NCBI GenBank assembly: GCA_945870425.1
Contig: CAMBSD010000009.1
Coordinates: 50,180-114,179 of the forward strand
From: Chitinophaga pinensis
Lineage (GTDB): Bacteria; Bacteroidota; Bacteroidia; UKL13-3
Direction: 5' to 3'
Length of the DNA stretch: 64,000 nt
The notes under the pieces were generated by a model. It saw only the letters and a program-made list of their open reading frames with translations, made no database searches and was not told the DNA's origin. Numbering within the stretch: the stretch's first letter is position 1; each line of letters begins with the position of its first letter. Shown in pieces: positions 43,728-54,158 of the stretch. Made by a program: the position numbers and the translations under genes.

Positions 43728-44522
43728 TTAAGGCCTAACCGCCAGCACACCGTTATTGCTATTAATATCCAATAAAGGATAATCATTAAAATCAACTGAA
43801 GCATCTCCGTTTAGGTCATTCGCATCATATCCCAATATGCCATCATTGCTTGCTATATCAAGTGCAGGGTAATCATTAAAATCTACGGAACCATCTTGTG
43901 TAATGTCGCCACTATACATCGCAAAAACACCATTACCCATATTTGATAAGTTATCGCCAAAAGCTTTGTTAGCTGCATTGCTAAAATTATAAGATGCCCC
44001 CAAAGCAGTAATATTTACTGGACTTGCACTCCAAGTTTCAATGCTATTGCGATGTTTTACTACAATAAAGTATGCATTGCCAATAGCACTTGCAGGAATC
44101 AATACCTTAGCTGTTCCATCTGTATTTACAAGGGCATTACAAGAATAAATAGAATCATAAGGTGCATGGCTGCTGTGTAGTTTAACCTGTATGATGTCCG
44201 ACACTGTTTTTTCAGTTAATACACCTGGGGTATTAAACAAACTTTGCATTTTTGAATTGCCCACATAATAGCCTTCAATAAAAGCTGTAAGGTTTATATA
44301 CACACCCGTATCAATGCTTTCAGGCTGCTGATAACCTTGTGTAAGCATACTGGTATGATTACCCAAAGTAGCATTAAAGGTTTCACCTATGGTGGCACTT
44401 AGGTTAATATTTCCATTACTGAAATATGAACCTGCCACAGGTTGAGCCTTGCGGGTGATAGTTTGCGAGTATGAAACTTTAACAATAATAATTGATAAAA
44501 TGAATAGTATATTTTTTTTCAT
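43728..44522 (-). CDS. secreted protein with duplicated C-terminal dockerin-like Ca-binding repeats
   Basis: Signal peptide ending SYSQ. C-terminal 'GDITQDGSVDFNDYPALDIA' and 'NDLNGDASVDFNDYPLLDIN' (DxNxDGxVDxxDY F-hand pair). Confidence 0.55.
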   Translation of the reverse strand: MKKNILFILSIIIVKVSYSQTITRKAQPVAGSYFSNGNINLSATIGETFNATLGNHTSMLTQGYQQPESIDTGVYINLTAFIEGYYVGNSKMQSLFNTPGVLTEKTVSDIIQVKLHSSHAPYDSIYSCNALVNTDGTAKVLIPASAIGNAYFIVVKHRNSIETWSASPVNITALGASYNFSNAANKAFGDNLSNMGNGVFAMYSGDITQDGSVDFNDYPALDIASNDGILGYDANDLNGDASVDFNDYPLLDINSNNGVLAVRP

Positions 44523-44534
44523 AATAAGATTAGT

Positions 44535-44918
44535 TTATTGAATAATGTTGTACTCAATTATAGAAACAACATAACTTCGTCCTGCACCAGCCCAACCTAA
44601 ATAATCTCCGGATTGTAACCAAATTGTTTCTTTAATTACAGATAATGAAATTACATTGTTATTACCATAATTTATTTCTCTCGCAACATTGCTATAACAA
44701 GCATTATTTATTGTTAAACAACCTGATAAATTATTACTAAAATCGCGCCCTCCACTAATGCCCATAGATTCAATTTTCCATACTTTAACGCTAGGCACTG
44801 TATCGAATGTAGTAGTTGTAATACCAGTAAAAGTTCTTACCCTATTAAACTGCAAATTCCCTTGCGCATACGAAGCCATTGAAAATAATAGAATCGCAAT
44901 TGTTATTGTTTTTTTCAT
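44535..44918 (-). CDS. small secreted protein, paralog of 44930..45400
   Basis: Start set at 'MKKTITIAILLFSMASYAQGNLQFNRV'. Shares N-terminal (about 85% nt identity) and C-terminal (IIEYNII / AIEFNIV) segments with the neighbour. Confidence 0.55.
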   Translation of the reverse strand: MKKTITIAILLFSMASYAQGNLQFNRVRTFTGITTTTFDTVPSVKVWKIESMGISGGRDFSNNLSGCLTINNACYSNVAREINYGNNNVISLSVIKETIWLQSGDYLGWAGAGRSYVVSIIEYNIIQ

Positions 44919-44929
44919 ATTTTTTATAA

Positions 44930-45400
44930 TTATGGAACGATGTTGAATTCTATAGCTGAAATTAACATACCTGTGCCTTGTACAATTGAAATAACTTCTC
45001 CTGCCTTTAACCATACTGACGGTGCACCAAAACCACCCAATACTGGGGTATCCAATGTTGCTGGACATTGGCTGCACTGACCTTGAGGTGCAATAGTACT
45101 ATTATTAAGCTGGGTTAAATTATATTTTAACCCAGCTACTGAAGCAATTTCAAATGTATTGTGGGTATAATAACAATAATCACTACCCGATTGCCATATA
45201 CAATTAGTATATGGCAATTTAACTGTTAAATTATTCCCAGATCCTGTTGAAGTTATCTTCAAAACTTTCCCAGCAGGAACAGTATAAGTATCTCCGTTTT
45301 TTATATTTAAAACCTGATTAAACTGTAAATTACCTTGCGCATATGAAGCCATTGAAAACAGCAGCATTGCTATGGTTATAATTTTTTTCATGTTATTCAT
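44930..45400 (-). CDS. small secreted protein, paralog of 44535..44918
   Basis: 'MKKIITIAMLLFSMASYAQGNLQFNQV...', Cys-containing middle region. Confidence 0.55.
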   Translation of the reverse strand: MNNMKKIITIAMLLFSMASYAQGNLQFNQVLNIKNGDTYTVPAGKVLKITSTGSGNNLTVKLPYTNCIWQSGSDYCYYTHNTFEIASVAGLKYNLTQLNNSTIAPQGQCSQCPATLDTPVLGGFGAPSVWLKAGEVISIVQGTGMLISAIEFNIVP

Positions 45401-45402
45401 AA

Positions 45403-45852
45403 TTAAAATCCATCAGATAAATAAAGCATGGTATTGGCATTAGAGCCTTTGCTTGTGCCAGAAAATATGGAATAAGGAACACTCATCAATTGCTGCACAC
45501 CCATAAATGAGTAGTTGTTACCTGTAGCAGTGGTGTCTAATTCAACTTGCAAAAATTTTGAATTATTGCCCCAATTTACACCTGCCAAAGTTCCTGTAAT
45601 GGCCGTTCCCATGCCCACATTTAGGTTAAACATACCCAAGGCATTGGTGGTGGTGGTATGGGTTTCTTTAAAAGCAACCGTGCCTGTAGCCACACTATCC
45701 AAAATACTAAAGCGTACTTTAATAGCTGTATTGGTTAGTGCTTGTCCGTTGGCTTTTCTTGCAGCCGCTTGGTAAGGTATGCCAAGCGGTGCTTGGGCAT
45801 ACGTTTTTGCAAATCCTAGAATTGCAATTAATGTGTAGATTATTTTTCTCAT
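45403..45852 (-). CDS. small secreted protein, first gene of the cluster
   Basis: Signal peptide 'MRKIIYTLIAILGFAKTYAQ'. No known motif. Confidence 0.5.
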   Translation of the reverse strand: MRKIIYTLIAILGFAKTYAQAPLGIPYQAAARKANGQALTNTAIKVRFSILDSVATGTVAFKETHTTTTNALGMFNLNVGMGTAITGTLAGVNWGNNSKFLQVELDTTATGNNYSFMGVQQLMSVPYSIFSGTSKGSNANTMLYLSDGF

Positions 45853-45990: not shown

Positions 45991-46362
45991 TTGCACATGC
46001 ACATAGGCTTACGTATTAAGATAGCTAGAATTAGTAAAGGATTTAAACAAGAGGATCTAGCTGAACGGATAAATAAAACCCGTCCCCTCATCTCCAGTAT
46101 TGAACAAACTGGTAAAGTTAATCATTATACCTTGAAGAAAATATGCGAGGTATTAGAAATTGATATAAACGAATTGGAAAACTCGGTGGTTTCTGAACCG
46201 TCTGCGCTGTTTTTAAGTAAGCAGCCTAACTTTAATAGTCTTAATTCCAGAATAAAGGAAATAGAGGAAGATAATAAAAACCTAAGATCGCTTATTTTGG
46301 CTCAATCAGAACTAATAAAAGACCAAAAAGATTTTATCAATAAACAAAAAAAGAATACATAA
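45991..46362 (+). CDS. XRE-family helix-turn-helix transcriptional regulator
   Basis: HTH_3-like 'IGLRIKIARISKGFKQEDLAERINKTRPLISSIEQ', coiled-coil-like tail. Divergent from the secreted-protein cluster. Confidence 0.7.
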   Translation: MHMHIGLRIKIARISKGFKQEDLAERINKTRPLISSIEQTGKVNHYTLKKICEVLEIDINELENSVVSEPSALFLSKQPNFNSLNSRIKEIEEDNKNLRSLILAQSELIKDQKDFINKQKKNT

Positions 46363-46431: not shown

Positions 46432-47526
46432 CTATTCTTGTTTTTCTATATGAATGGTTTGGGTTGGATAAGCAAAACTACAATGGTTATTTTCTACGAT
46501 ATGCATAATTTTTAAGTTTAGCATTTCTTTTACTTCTATCATCTTTTCAAACTCGTTGCTGTTTACATAATAGATCACCAATATGTTAAGCGAACTGCTG
46601 CCAAACTCTGTAAACCTTACATTGGTTTCATCGCAGGTATCAGGGTGTGCATCTATCTCGGTTTTTATTTGTTCTATAATGTTGAGTATGTTTTCTGACT
46701 TAGCTCCATAGGTCAGTTGCAAACTAAACCTCACACGCCTTTGGGTACTTTGGGTGATATTGTTTAGCGCAGCATCTACCATTTTTTTGTTGGGCACGGT
46801 AAGCAAGCTGCGGTCTAAAGTCCTAACGCGTGTAGTCCTAAATCCAATTTTTTCAATATTGCCTTTTATCTCACCTGCTTCAACCAAATCGCCTACACTA
46901 AAGGGTTTGTCTAAGTAAATAATAAAGGAGCCAAACAAGTTGGCAATCGTATCCTGAGCAGCAAGAGCCACAGCCAATCCTCCAATACCCAAACTGGCAA
47001 TCAGAGCGGTAATGTTTACTTCAAAAGCTTGTGCTAGAATCACAAAAAACGAAATGATAATGGCCAAAACCTTCGACAGTTCTTTGATAAACCTAACCAA
47101 ATCTTTACTCACTTCGGTATCCTCACTATGGATAAAAACGTAAGAAATAAAATCAAATACACGCAAAACTATGCGCGTAAAAACTACGATAAGGGCAATT
47201 TCAAATAGGGCTTCAATCAACCAACGAACACCAAATTTCTCAATAGGGTCAATGTCCCAAATGACTGGAAAATGTAACCTGTCCAAAGCAAAATATACCA
47301 CTAATACGGTGATAAACTGCTCAACCGGTTTTAAAAATAGGGTAACAAAAACCTCAGAATAACGGTTGTGGGCAATGCCTTTGACAAAGCGAAAACTTTG
47401 GCGGCTGATGATGCGTGCCGAAACCCTTTTTAACAAAAAGCCTAGCAACAATATGCCAAAGGCAATGAGATATTGGTAGAGGGTATTATCTAAAAAAACC
47501 TGATTATAAAATTCTGCCGTAAACAT
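46432..47526 (-). CDS. mechanosensitive ion channel, MscS family
   Basis: TM3-like 'AVALAAQDTIANLFGSFIIYLDKPFSVGDLVE' followed by beta-domain 'GNIEKIGFRTTRVRTLDRSLLTVPN'. Confidence 0.8.
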   Translation of the reverse strand: MFTAEFYNQVFLDNTLYQYLIAFGILLLGFLLKRVSARIISRQSFRFVKGIAHNRYSEVFVTLFLKPVEQFITVLVVYFALDRLHFPVIWDIDPIEKFGVRWLIEALFEIALIVVFTRIVLRVFDFISYVFIHSEDTEVSKDLVRFIKELSKVLAIIISFFVILAQAFEVNITALIASLGIGGLAVALAAQDTIANLFGSFIIYLDKPFSVGDLVEAGEIKGNIEKIGFRTTRVRTLDRSLLTVPNKKMVDAALNNITQSTQRRVRFSLQLTYGAKSENILNIIEQIKTEIDAHPDTCDETNVRFTEFGSSSLNILVIYYVNSNEFEKMIEVKEMLNLKIMHIVENNHCSFAYPTQTIHIEKQE

Positions 47527-47598
47527 ACCGCAAATATAGGGTTGAATTTGAGAATGAGGGAATATGAAAATGTGCTTATGGGATATTCAAAACCTACA

Positions 47599-47717
47599 CA
47601 AGTGTTAAGCGAAGCGTCACTTGCAAATAGAAAGATTAAAATTTTGTAACTTTTATATAGCAATCATATCACAAAAAGGATGGCTTCATACAATAAATGT
47701 CAGGTGGAAACACGTGA
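47599..47717 (+). repeat. interspersed element, copy 1 (5'-truncated, degenerate terminal hairpin)
   Basis: At least 85% identical to 50351..50488 and 51493..51632 over the core AGTGTTAAGCGAAGCGTCACTTG...GTCAGGTGGAAACAC. Confidence 0.6.
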
Positions 47718-47757
47718 TAGAACTAGTAAAGAAAACTACTTTCAAATATCTTCGATA

Positions 47758-49176: not shown

Positions 49177-49749
49177 CTAAATCTCATAAATTTGGTACCT
49201 ATTTAATTTGTATATCTCATGCCCTTTTGGAAACACTATAGGTTGTGATAAAATGTTTAAGTTTTTGAATTCAAAACTCACGTTGAATAAGGGTTCAGTT
49301 CCTAAACCTGCTACAATCTGGTTAAACATCTTTACATCAGCATTTGCTGCTTTTACTTGTTTGCGCATTTGCTTAATCCAGCCCTTAGCATAAAACTGAT
49401 TTTGAATAGTATGATTTTCATCTACAAAATATTCCCATTTTTTAAGTGTAGCAATATGCAAGCGTTCTTTGGTCTGCTTATTTAGGGTATATAAAATAAG
49501 TTCTTAAGGAAAGTTTCTTAGTTTAGTACTTTTTGCAACACCTTGTAAAAAGGCATATTTCATCCCATTAATTAAAGTGGATTGATCAAACAACCATTCT
49601 TCAAAACCAAAATGGTGTTTGCCTTCAAAACAATCTGGATTACTGCTTTTACCGGCTAATCCAGTAGGCATTTTCCAATTTTTTGAATTAAACGTAAGGC
49701 GAGTATATTGCATAATAATAATAAATTTTTTGGCAATCGATAAATTCAA
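49177..49749 (-). pseudogene. hypothetical protein interrupted by in-frame TAA (49504-49506)
   Basis: Track ORFs 49504..49749 and 49177..49461 are in the same frame, separated by one TAA plus 14 sense codons. Confidence 0.45.
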
Positions 49750-49945
49750 TAAGTATTAGTTTTATAATTTTTTTTATTATTAATTAGAAAACAAATTTAA
49801 CAGGGCAATAGGTCTATTCAAATTATATTTGGTAGTTTTATTTTACTTTTAAGTATTTTATTTATACTTTTAGTTATATTTGTTTAATAAAATTAGTAAA
49901 TCAACTACCTTAAGAATTATGCATACAAAAACAAAATCAGATCAG

Positions 49946-50334
49946 ATGAAACGTTCAGAAGAACTGCGCATTGGAAAAAAATAAAACAACTGAGAGAACT
50001 AAAAAACTTTTCTCAGGAGTATATGGCTTCTCATTTAAAAATGAGTGTACCCGGATATGGTAGAATTGAAAGAAATGAGGTAGATGTTAGTATTGAGAGG
50101 GCAAATCAAATTGCAAATGTTTTAGGAATTAGTTTAACTGAATTAATCAGCTTTGACGAGAAATATATATTTAATAATTATGCTAATAACCAAAATGCTT
50201 TTGTTATTAATAGTGAATTACACCAAGTTGATAAAAAGACCTTAATAGAATTAGTTGATTACCTTAAACAACAACTACAATTAAAAGATGAGTTAATAAA
50301 AGAATTGGTACTTGGTAAAAAAAATATCAAGTAA
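49946..50334 (+). pseudogene. XRE-family HTH regulator with frameshift in A7 homopolymer
   Basis: ATG at 49946 gives 'MKRSEELRIGKK' and stops at TAA. With one extra A in the A7 run (49975-49981) it reads '...IGKKIKQLRELKNFSQEYMASHLKMSVPGYGRIERNE...', a complete HTH. The track ORF 50023..50334 lacks helix 1. Confidence 0.55.
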
Positions 50335-50350: not shown

Positions 50351-50488
50351 TTCCTCGCTTTCGCATTTGTTAAGCGAAGCGTCACTTGTAAATAGAAAGA
50401 TTAAAAGTTTGTAACTTTTATATAGCAACCATATCATATAAAGGATTGCTTCATACAATAAATGTCAGGTGGAAACACCTGACACCAC
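50351..50488 (+). repeat. interspersed element, copy 2 (full core)
   Basis: CCTCGCTTTCGCA-N-TGTTAAGCGAAGCG hairpin, AT-rich middle, GTCAGGTG-GAAA-CACCTGAC hairpin. An imperfect hairpin with T-tract follows at about 50513-50550. Confidence 0.65.
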
Positions 50489-50566
50489 TACAAAATAAAA
50501 TCAATATTTACAAAGAAGACGTCCATTTAAGACAACTTCTTTATTTGGTATAATTTATAGTTTAGT

Positions 50567-50745
50567 TTAAGAGTCTTTTGCTTTTCTTGATTTTCTATAA
50601 TATAAAATTAATGGAAGAAAACCGAAAATTATATGTAATATAGATAGCCTAAATTCATTATAAGTAAAATAGCTAAGATATACAAATCCAGCATTACCCA
50701 ATATTGTTATTATTATAACAACAATTAAATTTAGCTTCCCCATAA
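50567..50745 (-). CDS. small hydrophobic protein (59 aa, 2 TM), overlaps the upstream stop
   Basis: 'MGKLNLIVVIIITILGNAGFVYLSYFTYNEFRLSILHIIFGFLPLILYYRKSRKAKDS'. ATG overlaps the upstream ORF's last codons. Not in the ORF track (<60 aa). Coordinates approximate. Confidence 0.3.
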
Positions 50746-51348
50746 TACATAACTGAGTTGAAGTATCTGGAGTGCATTAACAAAAGACTGTTTCTCAGTT
50801 ACAGATAATTCAAATCCACTAACATTATTAATCAAAGCACCTAAATTATCTACCCATTGATCTTGATCAGCACCTTGAATACTATCAAAAGTATCTGATA
50901 CCGTTTCTGAATCTAAAGTGTTTAATGGTATGACATTTGTGGTAGCAACCATCCATTCATCAACAGTTGACATATCTTGAGCCAAAGCTGAAGCTATAAT
51001 GTCATCAAAATATGATTGAGTTATTGCTTCTAATCCAGCAGTCCAATCTGGTCTAACCTGACAAGCAATTGGAATTATAATATCATAGGTTACTGAAGTA
51101 TTTCCAGCCGCAAAAAACTGCTCACAAGTTAAATTGTGATTTATACCTGTATTATCTGTTGTGCTGGGTATTAGGTGAACTACAGGTGAATCAATACTCC
51201 ATCCATCTGATGCTTTCTTATCTGAGTAATATGCTGTTGAAGCCGCAGCTGCAATTGCAAAACTTAAAAAGCCTGTTTCAGCTGATAGTAAACCTGCTAA
51301 ATAATCGCATGATGCAATAGCGTTTTTTTGGTCTCTTGTTAATGCCAT
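50731..51348 (-). CDS. acidic hypothetical protein, no signal peptide
   Basis: 205 aa, D/E-rich C-terminal half. No known motif. Confidence 0.5.
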   Translation of the reverse strand: MALTRDQKNAIASCDYLAGLLSAETGFLSFAIAAAASTAYYSDKKASDGWSIDSPVVHLIPSTTDNTGINHNLTCEQFFAAGNTSVTYDIIIPIACQVRPDWTAGLEAITQSYFDDIIASALAQDMSTVDEWMVATTNVIPLNTLDSETVSDTFDSIQGADQDQWVDNLGALINNVSGFELSVTEKQSFVNALQILQLSYVLWGS

Positions 51349-51492: not shown

Positions 51493-51702
51493 TCCCTCGC
51501 TTTCGCAAGTGTTAAGCGAAGCGTCACTTGTGAATAGAAAGATTAAAATTTTGTAACTTTTATATACCAATCATATCATATAAAGGATGGCTTCATACAA
51601 TAAATATCAGGTGGAAACACCTGACACCACCACTAGGTGGAAACATCTGACTTCACCACTTCACCTGACTTCACCACTAAAACATCTGACATCACCACTA
51701 AC
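51493..51702 (+). repeat. interspersed element, copy 3, extended by a 12-13-nt tandem microrepeat
   Basis: Same core as copies 1 and 2. Then about five CTGAC(A/T)(C/T)CACCAC-like units (51620-51702). Track ORF 51587..51790 lies inside this element. Confidence 0.65.
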
Positions 51703-51739
51703 AAAAAAAGCCCATCGTTCAATGAACGATGGGCTTTTT
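51703..51739. terminator. bidirectional rho-independent terminator
   Basis: AAAAAAAGCCCATCGTTCA-ATGAACGATGGGCTTTTT, a 12-bp perfect stem with A and T tracts on both sides. Confidence 0.7.
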
Positions 51740-51818
51740 ATTTATGTTAAAAGCAATCATACCGAACTGATATTTGTAATAGACCAATAAATTTGGTCTA
51801 ACAACTATCTAATCGGTA

Positions 51819-54071
51819 TTAGTACAACATTACTTTTTTAACGATTGATTTGTTTTCGTTTTCAACCAATACTACATAAACCCCTTTTTGGCTCATGTTT
51901 ACAGCATATGTATCGCTGCTAGTGGTACCTTCGCTTAGCACGCGGCCTAGCATATCGGTTACCGTTACTTTAGCTTTTGATGCATTGTCTAATTGCACCA
52001 CTATTTCACTAGTTTCTTGGTTAGTATAAATTCTAGCAAAATCAGTGTTCAACTCATTCACACCATTAATAATACCTGGCATATAAGTCATATTGGTAAA
52101 GTTGATACCATACACCCACAATGGATTATCAATAAATGGATTTCTGTTTTTCTGAATCGAAGAAATGTATTCATGACGCGCTATTTCTAATTCACTAGGT
52201 GGATCTTGTCGGTGCCATTTCATTAACACAGCAGTATCTTGTGCAAATTTACCACCGCTTAAGCCCCAATTTTGGCTGTAAGCACCATTGTAGCAAGTGG
52301 CCATATAAAACAAGGCACGGGCTAAATCTCCTTTGTGCTCATCGCGTGGTTCCCACACTGTTTTGTTGTTGGCATCTTTACCTAATTTTCCATATCCTGA
52401 AGGAGAAGTAGAGGTAAGGGTTACCACTTCACCAAAAGCATTGTTTGATCTAGTTAGGTTGGCATTGATTTGGTCGGTAGGAAACAAATGGTGCTGATCA
52501 TTATATTCAGGAAAATCTTTTCCATTAGGTGCTTGTGGCCACGTATTAGGATCCATATTGCTAGGCATCCAGCTTTGAGCGAATGTATGTTCTCTTGTCA
52601 ATGTTCCTGTTGAGCTTGATGCATTCCACCAAACAAATGGCTCAGAATAAACATAAGGCATATTGGTATACACGCAATACACGACTTTCTTACCACCAGT
52701 GGTATCTTTAGCCAACCAATTGTTTATTAATGTAGTGGTATAATTGCTATAAAAAATTGTATCGTGCGTATTGATTTTAGCTGAAAGCTCCGTTAAGAAA
52801 CTTGCCTTTCTTGGATCAAGACTTGCATAGTAGCTACCCGCATTTGAACCAGTAGTAGTTACAACCCCAGTCATAGGACTAGTGATTAAATAATTTTCGA
52901 AACTAGCAGGGCCATTGAAAGGAAATACAGCATAATGGTATACAGAATTAGCCAAAACATAAGTAGGTTTGAAAGTGGTATCAGCACCCACATAAGCCAC
53001 TTGCGCATCACCAATATTATCTCCTTTGCTATAGGTTTGACCATCCACGGGTACTTCATTTACAGCAGCATCATTTTTTCTTAATACCAGATACTTGTCT
53101 GACTTGTTTGCAGGTGGAAAAATATTTACAGAGTAAGTATATGCTTTAACGCCACCAAAAGTAATATTGTTTATTTTTTCGGTTGGTTCGGTAGCTAAAT
53201 TACCACCTATACCATACAACTTGAAGTTGAAAGGATTTTTTTCAGTATCTGAATTGCTAATGGCTAATGTAGCTTTTCTGGAACCTATGCTAGTGGTAGA
53301 AAAATTAACATTGAAGGTAGCTGATGAATTAGCCAATACATAAGCTGGAGCCGCACTCACAGAGAAATCAGCCGCAGCAGTGCCTGTAAAGTTCATACCG
53401 GTGATGAATAAAGTATCTAAGGTACCTTTATTCTCAATGGTAAACTGTGTGCTAGCTGTTTTTCCTATTAATGCAGTGCTACCATTTACCACATCAGCGC
53501 CTGCCAATTTCACATTGATGGTAGCCAAAGGCGATGCAGGTGCGCTAGCCAATGTAACATTATCTAAAGACACGTTTGAACCAGATTGTTTGTCAAGGTA
53601 AAAAAATCTGATATATCTGCTAGTAGATTTCGGGTTATCTGTAATGCTAGCAAATGCATTTGTTAAATCAGCTGCTGTGAAAGTGCGTAAATCAGTCCAT
53701 GTATTTCCATCTGCAGACTCTTGTGTTTTAAAAGTTCCAGCAAACGCAGGCGCTGGAGAAATACCAGTACCTTTAATATAATAACTTAAAGCACCCGGCT
53801 TATCTGTAAACCATATTTTCACATACTCACCTGTTTGGTCTAAGCGACATGCAGCATTGCCATCTTGGCCACTAGCATAGGTAAATCCTAGAACGGAGAT
53901 ATCCAACTTGGTTGACCAGCCTGTTGGGCCCGGATATTCAGGACCTGTAGGATTACTTGATGTAGACCCCGTAGGTGAAGGATTCACAAAGCTCCATGCT
54001 GTAGGCAATGTGGTTTGTGCATAGCTACTTAATGTCACAAAAATTGCCAAAATTGTAATAATTTTTTTCAT
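51819..54071 (-). CDS. secreted endonuclease I family (EndA/NucM/Vvn-like) nuclease with T9SS C-terminal sorting domain
   Basis: Signal peptide 'MKKIITILAIFVTLSSYAQ' (start set here). 'EHTFAQSW', 'DQHHLFP...N.TRSN' Endonuclease I catalytic motifs. C-terminal 'VTVTDMLGRVL...GVYVVLVENENKSIVKKVMLY'. Confidence 0.75.
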   Translation of the reverse strand: MKKIITILAIFVTLSSYAQTTLPTAWSFVNPSPTGSTSSNPTGPEYPGPTGWSTKLDISVLGFTYASGQDGNAACRLDQTGEYVKIWFTDKPGALSYYIKGTGISPAPAFAGTFKTQESADGNTWTDLRTFTAADLTNAFASITDNPKSTSRYIRFFYLDKQSGSNVSLDNVTLASAPASPLATINVKLAGADVVNGSTALIGKTASTQFTIENKGTLDTLFITGMNFTGTAAADFSVSAAPAYVLANSSATFNVNFSTTSIGSRKATLAISNSDTEKNPFNFKLYGIGGNLATEPTEKINNITFGGVKAYTYSVNIFPPANKSDKYLVLRKNDAAVNEVPVDGQTYSKGDNIGDAQVAYVGADTTFKPTYVLANSVYHYAVFPFNGPASFENYLITSPMTGVVTTTGSNAGSYYASLDPRKASFLTELSAKINTHDTIFYSNYTTTLINNWLAKDTTGGKKVVYCVYTNMPYVYSEPFVWWNASSSTGTLTREHTFAQSWMPSNMDPNTWPQAPNGKDFPEYNDQHHLFPTDQINANLTRSNNAFGEVVTLTSTSPSGYGKLGKDANNKTVWEPRDEHKGDLARALFYMATCYNGAYSQNWGLSGGKFAQDTAVLMKWHRQDPPSELEIARHEYISSIQKNRNPFIDNPLWVYGINFTNMTYMPGIINGVNELNTDFARIYTNQETSEIVVQLDNASKAKVTVTDMLGRVLSEGTTSSDTYAVNMSQKGVYVVLVENENKSIVKKVMLY

Positions 54072-54158
54072 ATGTATTTTTATTCGAACCGCAATCTTAC
54101 TAAAATAATTTGATGTATAAATTATCAAAGCATTATTTATGTTTGTTTTTACATAGTT

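Follow-up and report, generated by a model that had tools for sequence, protein, structure and literature searches.

A gene for an XRE-family regulator in the DNA analysed here (a stretch of 64,000 nucleotides from the genome of an uncultured freshwater Bacteroidota, hereafter the window) carries a one-base deletion that shortens a run of eight adenines to seven and thereby breaks the reading frame. We read the lesion as a real, recent and strain-specific loss-of-function frameshift, possibly a leaky one, at an unremarkable, mutation-prone A8 run in an accessory, probably autoregulated regulator, and put the probability of this reading at roughly 0.6. The phenomenon as such is ordinary. We take it for ordinary recent gene decay and not for a designed switch, because close relatives keep A8 and because the adjacent gene carries a premature stop.

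The frameshifted gene and its product

The elements at the lesion are the following (positions are those of the window):

49919..50334, plus strand: XRE-family (HTH_3) regulator gene, frameshifted; start ATG 49919 or 49946, stop TAA 50332-50334
49975..49981, plus strand: A7 homopolymer resulting from a one-base deletion; A8 (GGA AAA AAA ATA, i.e. G-K-K-I) in all close relatives
49982..49984, plus strand: premature TAA created by the frameshift, directly 3' of the A heptamer
50023..50334, plus strand: residual ORF of 103 aa

The first-pass annotation had described an A7 tract with an early stop in the frame that begins at ATG 49946, and this was borne out to the exact coordinate. Positions 49940-49990 read ...CAG ATG AAA CGT TCA GAA GAA CTG CGC ATT GGA AAA AAA TAA..., the homopolymer is exactly seven A long, and the zero frame from ATG 49946 yields MKRSEELRIGKK before it meets the premature TAA. 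The accompanying suggestion that the frame is restored by adding or removing one A stood for the addition only: with one A inserted a protein of 129 aa results that ends at TAA 50332-50334, whereas removal of one A fails and removal of two (A5, minus one Lys) succeeds. As had been proposed, the restored protein does contain an HTH, with a Pfam match to HTH_3 (PF01381) over residues 13-67 that scores 48.5 bits against a cut-off of 23. In terms of the two alleles, A8 encodes an in-frame protein of 138 aa, whereas A7 leads to a stop after 12 or 21 codons, counted from ATG 49946 or ATG 49919, respectively.

What remains of the gene is the fragment that had been predicted as its only possible product: the 103-aa ORF is the sole one with a canonical start left in the downstream frame, and it begins inside helix 2 of the HTH. 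An alternative in-frame start that would preserve helix 1 was rejected, as there is no canonical one; between the stop codon that ends at 49899 and position 50023 the downstream frame holds no ATG, GTG or TTG. Gene callers accordingly report the 103-aa ORF as the product of the A7 haplotype, and a weak match to HTH_3 is on record for it. The same gene contains a second A8 run (50317-50324, GGT AAA AAA AAT), which is intact in every strain. No second disabling lesion was found within the regulator of the window beyond the frameshift, and the promoter/operator region is intact.

The restored translation is 98% identical to P0001, and its best match in the species-representative genome collection has 91% protein identity. 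There are 57 homologues at E<=1e-3, nearly all of them intact and 127-138 aa long, with a highly conserved HTH region; the named sources are uncultured freshwater Bacteroidota ('Flavobacteriia', 'Bacteroidia', Crocinitomicaceae). In close orthologues, which have 138 aa, the annotated start lies nine codons upstream (MHTKTKSDQ-MKRSEEL..., equivalent to ATG 49919); distant orthologues begin at the position of ATG 49946, in the 129-aa form. PADLOC returned generic 'control protein', CapH and HTH matches for the regulator. The nearest solved relatives, both marginal, are an Rgg-type regulator (5jub) and SinR (1b0n, residues 18-124, E about 2e-3). The intact regulator at 45991..46362, which had been called a paralog in the first-pass annotation, is a distant XRE-family relative, of which 61 aa in the HTH align at 33% identity (pairwise E=3e-4). 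Recent paralogy was rejected: the two belong to the same superfamily and are alike in the HTH only.

Distribution and authenticity of the A7 allele

Five conspecific loci (L001, L002, L003, L004 and L056; 97-98.6% nt identity) have A8 and an intact 138-aa gene. L001 is a 3.25-Mb JGI contig and L056 an independent JGI contig; apart from the length of the tract, L001-L004 match the window exactly over the 160 nt that surround it. Further away, the orthologues L005-L008 read GGA AAA AAA AT-, again A8 with the gene intact, L023 reads GGT AAA AAA ATA and thus has A7, yet in frame, and in L010, L022 and L024 the run is interrupted by AAG AAA. Compared in this way, A8 goes with an intact gene at nine related loci, and the frameshifted A7 is confined to one haplotype, as against at least nine A8 loci examined. 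Truncated members amount to one in six of the 90% cluster and to about one or two among the 57 homologue clusters, the second being the N-terminally short L009. The picture is that of a recent pseudogene, with the ORF disrupted relative to 57 intact homologues and the frameshift present in the window haplotype only. Besides the frameshift, the regulator of the window differs from that of L056 by a synonymous change at 50098 and a D->V replacement at 50228; at the latter, mostly acidic site the orthologues all have D, E or T. Judged from these alignments, the change from A8 to A7 is a derived deletion in a single strain lineage.

The gene that faces the regulator is also broken:

49177..49749, minus strand: divergent neighbour, from a hypothetical family of 179 aa (P0064); its reading frame is cut by a TAA at 49504-49506

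It appears as two ORFs (81 and 94 aa) because this TAA splits the 179-aa gene. The corresponding codon is AAA (Lys) in L056 and L004, so that we are dealing with a nonsense substitution; L056, L004, L022 and 16 homologues from the database have the gene without interruption. The family consists of hypothetical proteins only, which share the N-terminal motif YTRLTFN..W..P.G...FGFEEWLF. The nonsense substitution resides on the same contigs as A7 and may be unrelated to the lesion in the regulator.

A loss of one base from a homopolymer is the classic type of sequencing or assembly error, and the organism might really have A8 and an intact gene, with one A dropped from the consensus. The 103-aa ORF is on record from three contigs, and the two that were retrieved both carry A7: an ENA contig (277 kb, with the k141 naming of MEGAHIT, which implies short reads) that is 100% identical to the window over 20,312 nt, and a Logan contig (run ERR5863100) that is 100% identical over 2,754 nt. 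An assembly slip is unlikely because contigs from these two assemblers, each identical to the window, have the same A7; they may nevertheless share one sequencing run or data set. A systematic homopolymer sequencing error was rejected, as no break was seen in the long ORFs of the window, which reach 850 aa, and none of the 47 runs of 6-7 nt differs in length from L001 over the approximately 18 kb aligned. Among A/T runs of at least eight, two of nine differ from L001, and both are A8->A7 contractions in the window, as an error that drops bases would produce. One of these, the intergenic run at 51703-51709, is a real polymorphism because the independent JGI contig L056 has A7 there as well, against A8 in L001. 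A further run, at 49768-49775 in the divergent promoter region, is T8 in the window and T9 in L056. By these comparisons, runs of at least eight are clearly mutable in this population in general. When a +/-1 indel was simulated at every run of at least six in the window, no other convincing split gene emerged; the three matches from the scan all lie inside larger ORFs of another frame or of the opposite strand. The stop in the adjacent gene, being a substitution, cannot be a homopolymer artefact. With A7 in two assemblies and the runs of 6-7 nt unaffected, the sequencing indel that had been offered as one explanation is unlikely.

Possible phase variation or recoding, and probable decay

The tract was originally put forward as a candidate slipped-strand switch. 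In such a reversible A8/A7 contingency system mispairing would turn the regulator, and with it its targets, ON and OFF, and the window would show the OFF state. It does share properties with the simple-sequence contingency loci of Campylobacter, Haemophilus, Neisseria and Helicobacter: the mononucleotide run lies in the 5' part of the coding region, where a change of +/-1 toggles the frame, and both tract lengths occur in the species. The length polymorphism of runs of at least eight (the two of nine, and T8/T9 at 49768) would make the change revertible in principle, and the remaining gene and the operator boxes are intact. A8 has also been kept in five lineages despite change in about a third of the synonymous codons, a retention that is uninformative because these lineages are related and only that third has changed.

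The length of the tract can be accounted for by codon choice. In codon usage computed from twelve long ORFs of the window, AAA makes up 0.84 of Lys codons and GGA 0.32 of Gly codons, all Ile codons start with A, and the chance of A8 at G-K-K-I from codon usage alone is about 0.23; the tract is neither longer nor better conserved than such usage predicts, and in four orthologues it is interrupted by AAG or by GGC/GGT. For known contingency loci an A8 poly-A run is short. The window (35% G+C, 64 kb) holds 47 A/T runs of seven and 16 of at least eight, and nothing singles out the A7/A8 tract from the latter. Because such runs are common here, the tract alone is unremarkable; what is notable is the broken conserved ORF. 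Also at odds with a switch are the restriction of the OFF state to one haplotype, the scarcity of truncated homologues, the irreversible nonsense substitution in the adjacent gene of that same haplotype, and the nature of the gene, which encodes a cytoplasmic regulator, in contrast to the surface and restriction-modification genes of the known loci. Positive support for the slipped-strand proposal was not obtained, with codon usage explaining the tract, interruptions in three orthologues and one OFF allele among about 60 clusters, and we regard reversible phase variation as improbable.

The gene might alternatively be functional as it stands, as a down-tuned regulator that is made through recoding, either by -1 ribosomal frameshifting or by insertion of an A during transcription. 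Read from ATG 49946 or 49919, the zero frame passes through GG-A-AAA-AAA-TAA, in which the seven adenines form a perfectly in-phase -1 slippery heptamer (X_XXY_YYZ, here A_AAA_AAA), and the product of a -1 slip, ...G K K I K Q L R..., is exactly the wild-type protein. A putative stimulatory structure follows:

49990..50016, plus strand: predicted 9-bp hairpin (CUGAGAGAA / UUUUCUCAG, 9-nt loop), 8 nt past the heptamer

Folding of 49982-50045 gives -14 kcal/mol (z=-3.5). The site resembles the -1 sites A_AAA_AAG and A_AAA_AAA of dnaX, IS elements and pDEST17 attB1 in its heptamer, in the adjacent zero-frame stop and in the hairpin at +8 nt (PMC1851650). C-AAA-AAA gave 25-60% -1 frameshifting in E. 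coli expression constructs (PMC1851650), and indels that are offset by low-level frameshifting are a recognised class (PMC5009743).

The window site nevertheless differs from those of the dnaX, IS and pDEST17 type in that it stems from a recent mutation and in that neither the arrangement nor the stimulatory structure is conserved. A two-frame arrangement was not found in any of the orthologous loci examined, all of which are single-frame, and because no orthologue shares it the site is not one of programmed recoding. The hairpin arises from two stretches of three codons, CTG-AGA-GAA (L-R-E) and TTC-TCT-CAG (F-S-Q), which are reverse complements of each other; it is lineage-specific, being weak or absent in most orthologues. 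A conserved frameshift-stimulating hairpin was accordingly rejected in favour of a by-product of these codons, and the structure is fortuitous. As to transcription, the genes with poly(A) indels that are rescued by slippage (tssM1, endosymbiont genes) are like ours in being otherwise intact and in having their frame restored by one extra A in the mRNA. They differ in length of the run: the documented runs have about 9-11 A, with 11 A in the rescue tract of Citrobacter rodentium tssM1 (PMC4256274), whereas the window run of seven is at or below the length at which the RNA polymerase of E. coli slips appreciably, which is at least 7 T and still more for A residues (PMC6260861). Given the slippage lengths in E. 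coli and the longer tracts of known rescues, transcriptional slippage is the less likely route. That the A7 allele yields a working regulator through either route is quite improbable.

A related proposal, likewise doubtful, is that A7 is a tuned hypomorph, in which the -1 cassette would supply the unaltered wild-type repressor in a small and constant amount. If so, repression would be partly lifted both at the promoter of the regulator itself and at the variable gene cassette beside it, and slippage between A7 and A8 could shift the population between full and low repressor dosage. A leaky frameshift, if true, would represent a small natural case of a compensated indel in a Bacteroidota regulator.

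Decay, the remaining option of the first-pass annotation, fits best, with a derived deletion, its restriction to one haplotype, a linked nonsense change in the neighbour and a D->V replacement at a mostly acidic residue. The course of events may have been as follows. A run that the genome-preferred codons for G-K-K-I had made eight A long would have contracted to seven by replication slippage, after which translation from either ATG would end after 12 or 21 residues in the A7 lineage. As helix 1 and some of helix 2 are missing from the leftover 103-aa ORF, DNA binding should be lost. The gene would then be a pseudogene of recent origin or, at most, a hypomorphic allele of weak function, in which the heptamer and the hairpin might let a minority of ribosomes make the exact wild-type protein; such leakiness is plausible in view of the frameshifting in E. 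coli constructs and of the predicted hairpin. With few other changes relative to L056 and with the operators intact, long-term decay does not follow, and the A7 allele could also be a transient OFF state. Losses are seen in distant relatives too. In L013, a MAG of the Chitinophagales, the regulator at 1080-1500 is a multi-lesion pseudogene that has acquired several stops and frameshifts, one of them at the homologous poly-A site, and in L009 (5980-6370) no canonical start codon precedes the helix-2 Met of the homologue. On account of these two cases, the regulator has been lost repeatedly and the family is evidently dispensable.

For annotation this means that the locus should be described as an XRE regulator with a frameshift, either a pseudogene or a hypomorph and specific to the strain; to call it a protein of 103 aa or a switch for phase variation would be wrong. 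It also calls for some caution: Lys-rich motifs give rise to numerous A8 runs in AT-rich genomes, and that one of these should now and then suffer a frameshift is no more than the background to be expected.

Operator-like boxes and the variable locus

Two operator-like boxes precede the gene:

49844..49855, strand not assigned: operator-like palindrome O1, TACTTTTAAGTA, 5+2+5; conserved upstream of orthologues
49865..49876, strand not assigned: operator-like box O2, TACTTTTAGTTA, 21 nt from O1; conserved upstream of orthologues

Versions of O1 and O2 with the same spacing precede every orthologue of the regulator, even where protein identity falls to about 50%, and the pseudogene of L013 as well. 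Within the 64 kb, exact matches are limited to O1 and O2 themselves, and matches with one mismatch occur at chance level. The -7 promoter consensus of Bacteroidota is TAnnTTTG, and TATATTTG (49875-49882), which overlaps O2, fits this pattern. From the conserved paired boxes over a promoter-like element we infer that the regulator is autoregulated and that it faces the divergent promoter too.

The intact protein would have an N-terminal HTH_3 and a helical C-terminal tail, like SinR; it probably binds O1 and O2, overlapping its own promoter in the divergent intergenic region, and when bound would keep down transcription of its own gene and, probably, of the divergent one. Loss of the regulator should then de-repress its own promoter and perhaps that of the neighbour. 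Likeness to SinR-type XRE (Cro/CI) repressors lies in the N-terminal HTH_3, which is above the Pfam threshold in the restored protein, in the helical, Leu/Lys-rich character of its C-terminal tail, and in the pair of palindromic boxes, spaced by 21 nt, around the promoter of its gene, as would be expected for an autoregulated dimer or tetramer. The similarity of the restored protein to SinR is marginal, however, a SinI-like partner gene is lacking beside the regulator of the window, and the family does not extend beyond uncultured freshwater Bacteroidota and lacks a neighbour that is conserved from locus to locus. Nearly every orthologous locus has a divergent gene from another family, and this gene varies between strains too; searches of the regulator's neighbours with Pfam and PADLOC gave nothing significant. 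A conserved partner (toxin, restriction enzyme or defence gene) was not found.

The regulator lies within a strain-variable segment between core genes for an MscS-type channel (46432-47526) and a T9SS-tagged endonuclease (51819-54128). A direct repeat of 139 nt occurs in this segment at 47588-47726, 50353-50491 and 51495-51633 (R1 to R3); the copies are 86-94% identical and the repeat is absent elsewhere in the window. The regulator is divergent from minus-strand genes and repeat copy 2 begins just past its stop codon, as the first-pass annotation had it:

50353..50491, strand not assigned: repeat copy 2, immediately 3' of the regulator gene; terminator-like minus-strand hairpin at 50486-50461

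The repeat is strongly structured (minus strand z=-4.0), with the terminator-like hairpin GGTGTCAGGTG-TTTC-CACCTGACATT. Rfam returned only sub-threshold matches for the repeat and its region, located at the terminator near 51700-51800, and no covariation was detected for the repeat structure, the copies being too similar. By eye, one GTTAAGC core-like motif in the repeat might recall integron attC sites, although no such identity is claimed.

The repeat copies bracket cassettes that differ between conspecific strains (numbers in square brackets are protein lengths in aa, the asterisk marks the interrupted gene):

Window: R1-[183, 226, 179*]-XRE-R2-[58, 205]-R3
L056: R1-[183, 186, 179]-XRE-R2
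L001: R1-[337]-XRE-R2
L002: an additional cassette past R2

R2 and R3 flank a 1.1-kb insertion that is missing from L001 and L056. This locus, in which cassettes bracketed by a structured 139-nt repeat sit beside a conserved, probably autoregulated regulator, may be the more interesting object.

Several minor observations concern the same region. The inserted cassette at 50567-51348, which is specific to the window, encodes a 205-aa protein and a predicted membrane peptide of 58 aa, with no family match. At 51609-51699 three to four tandem units of 26 nt (AGGTGGAAACACCTGACACCACCACT) extend the 3' end of repeat copy 3; their copy number is strain-variable, with one fewer in L001, and a canonical terminator follows at about 51700-51745. 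Small secreted paralogs whose signal peptides resemble one another (MKKIITIAMLLFSMASYAQGNLQFN...) form a tandem array at 43728-45852, and a portion of this array (about 44530-45275) is highly divergent or replaced among the window, L001 and L056.
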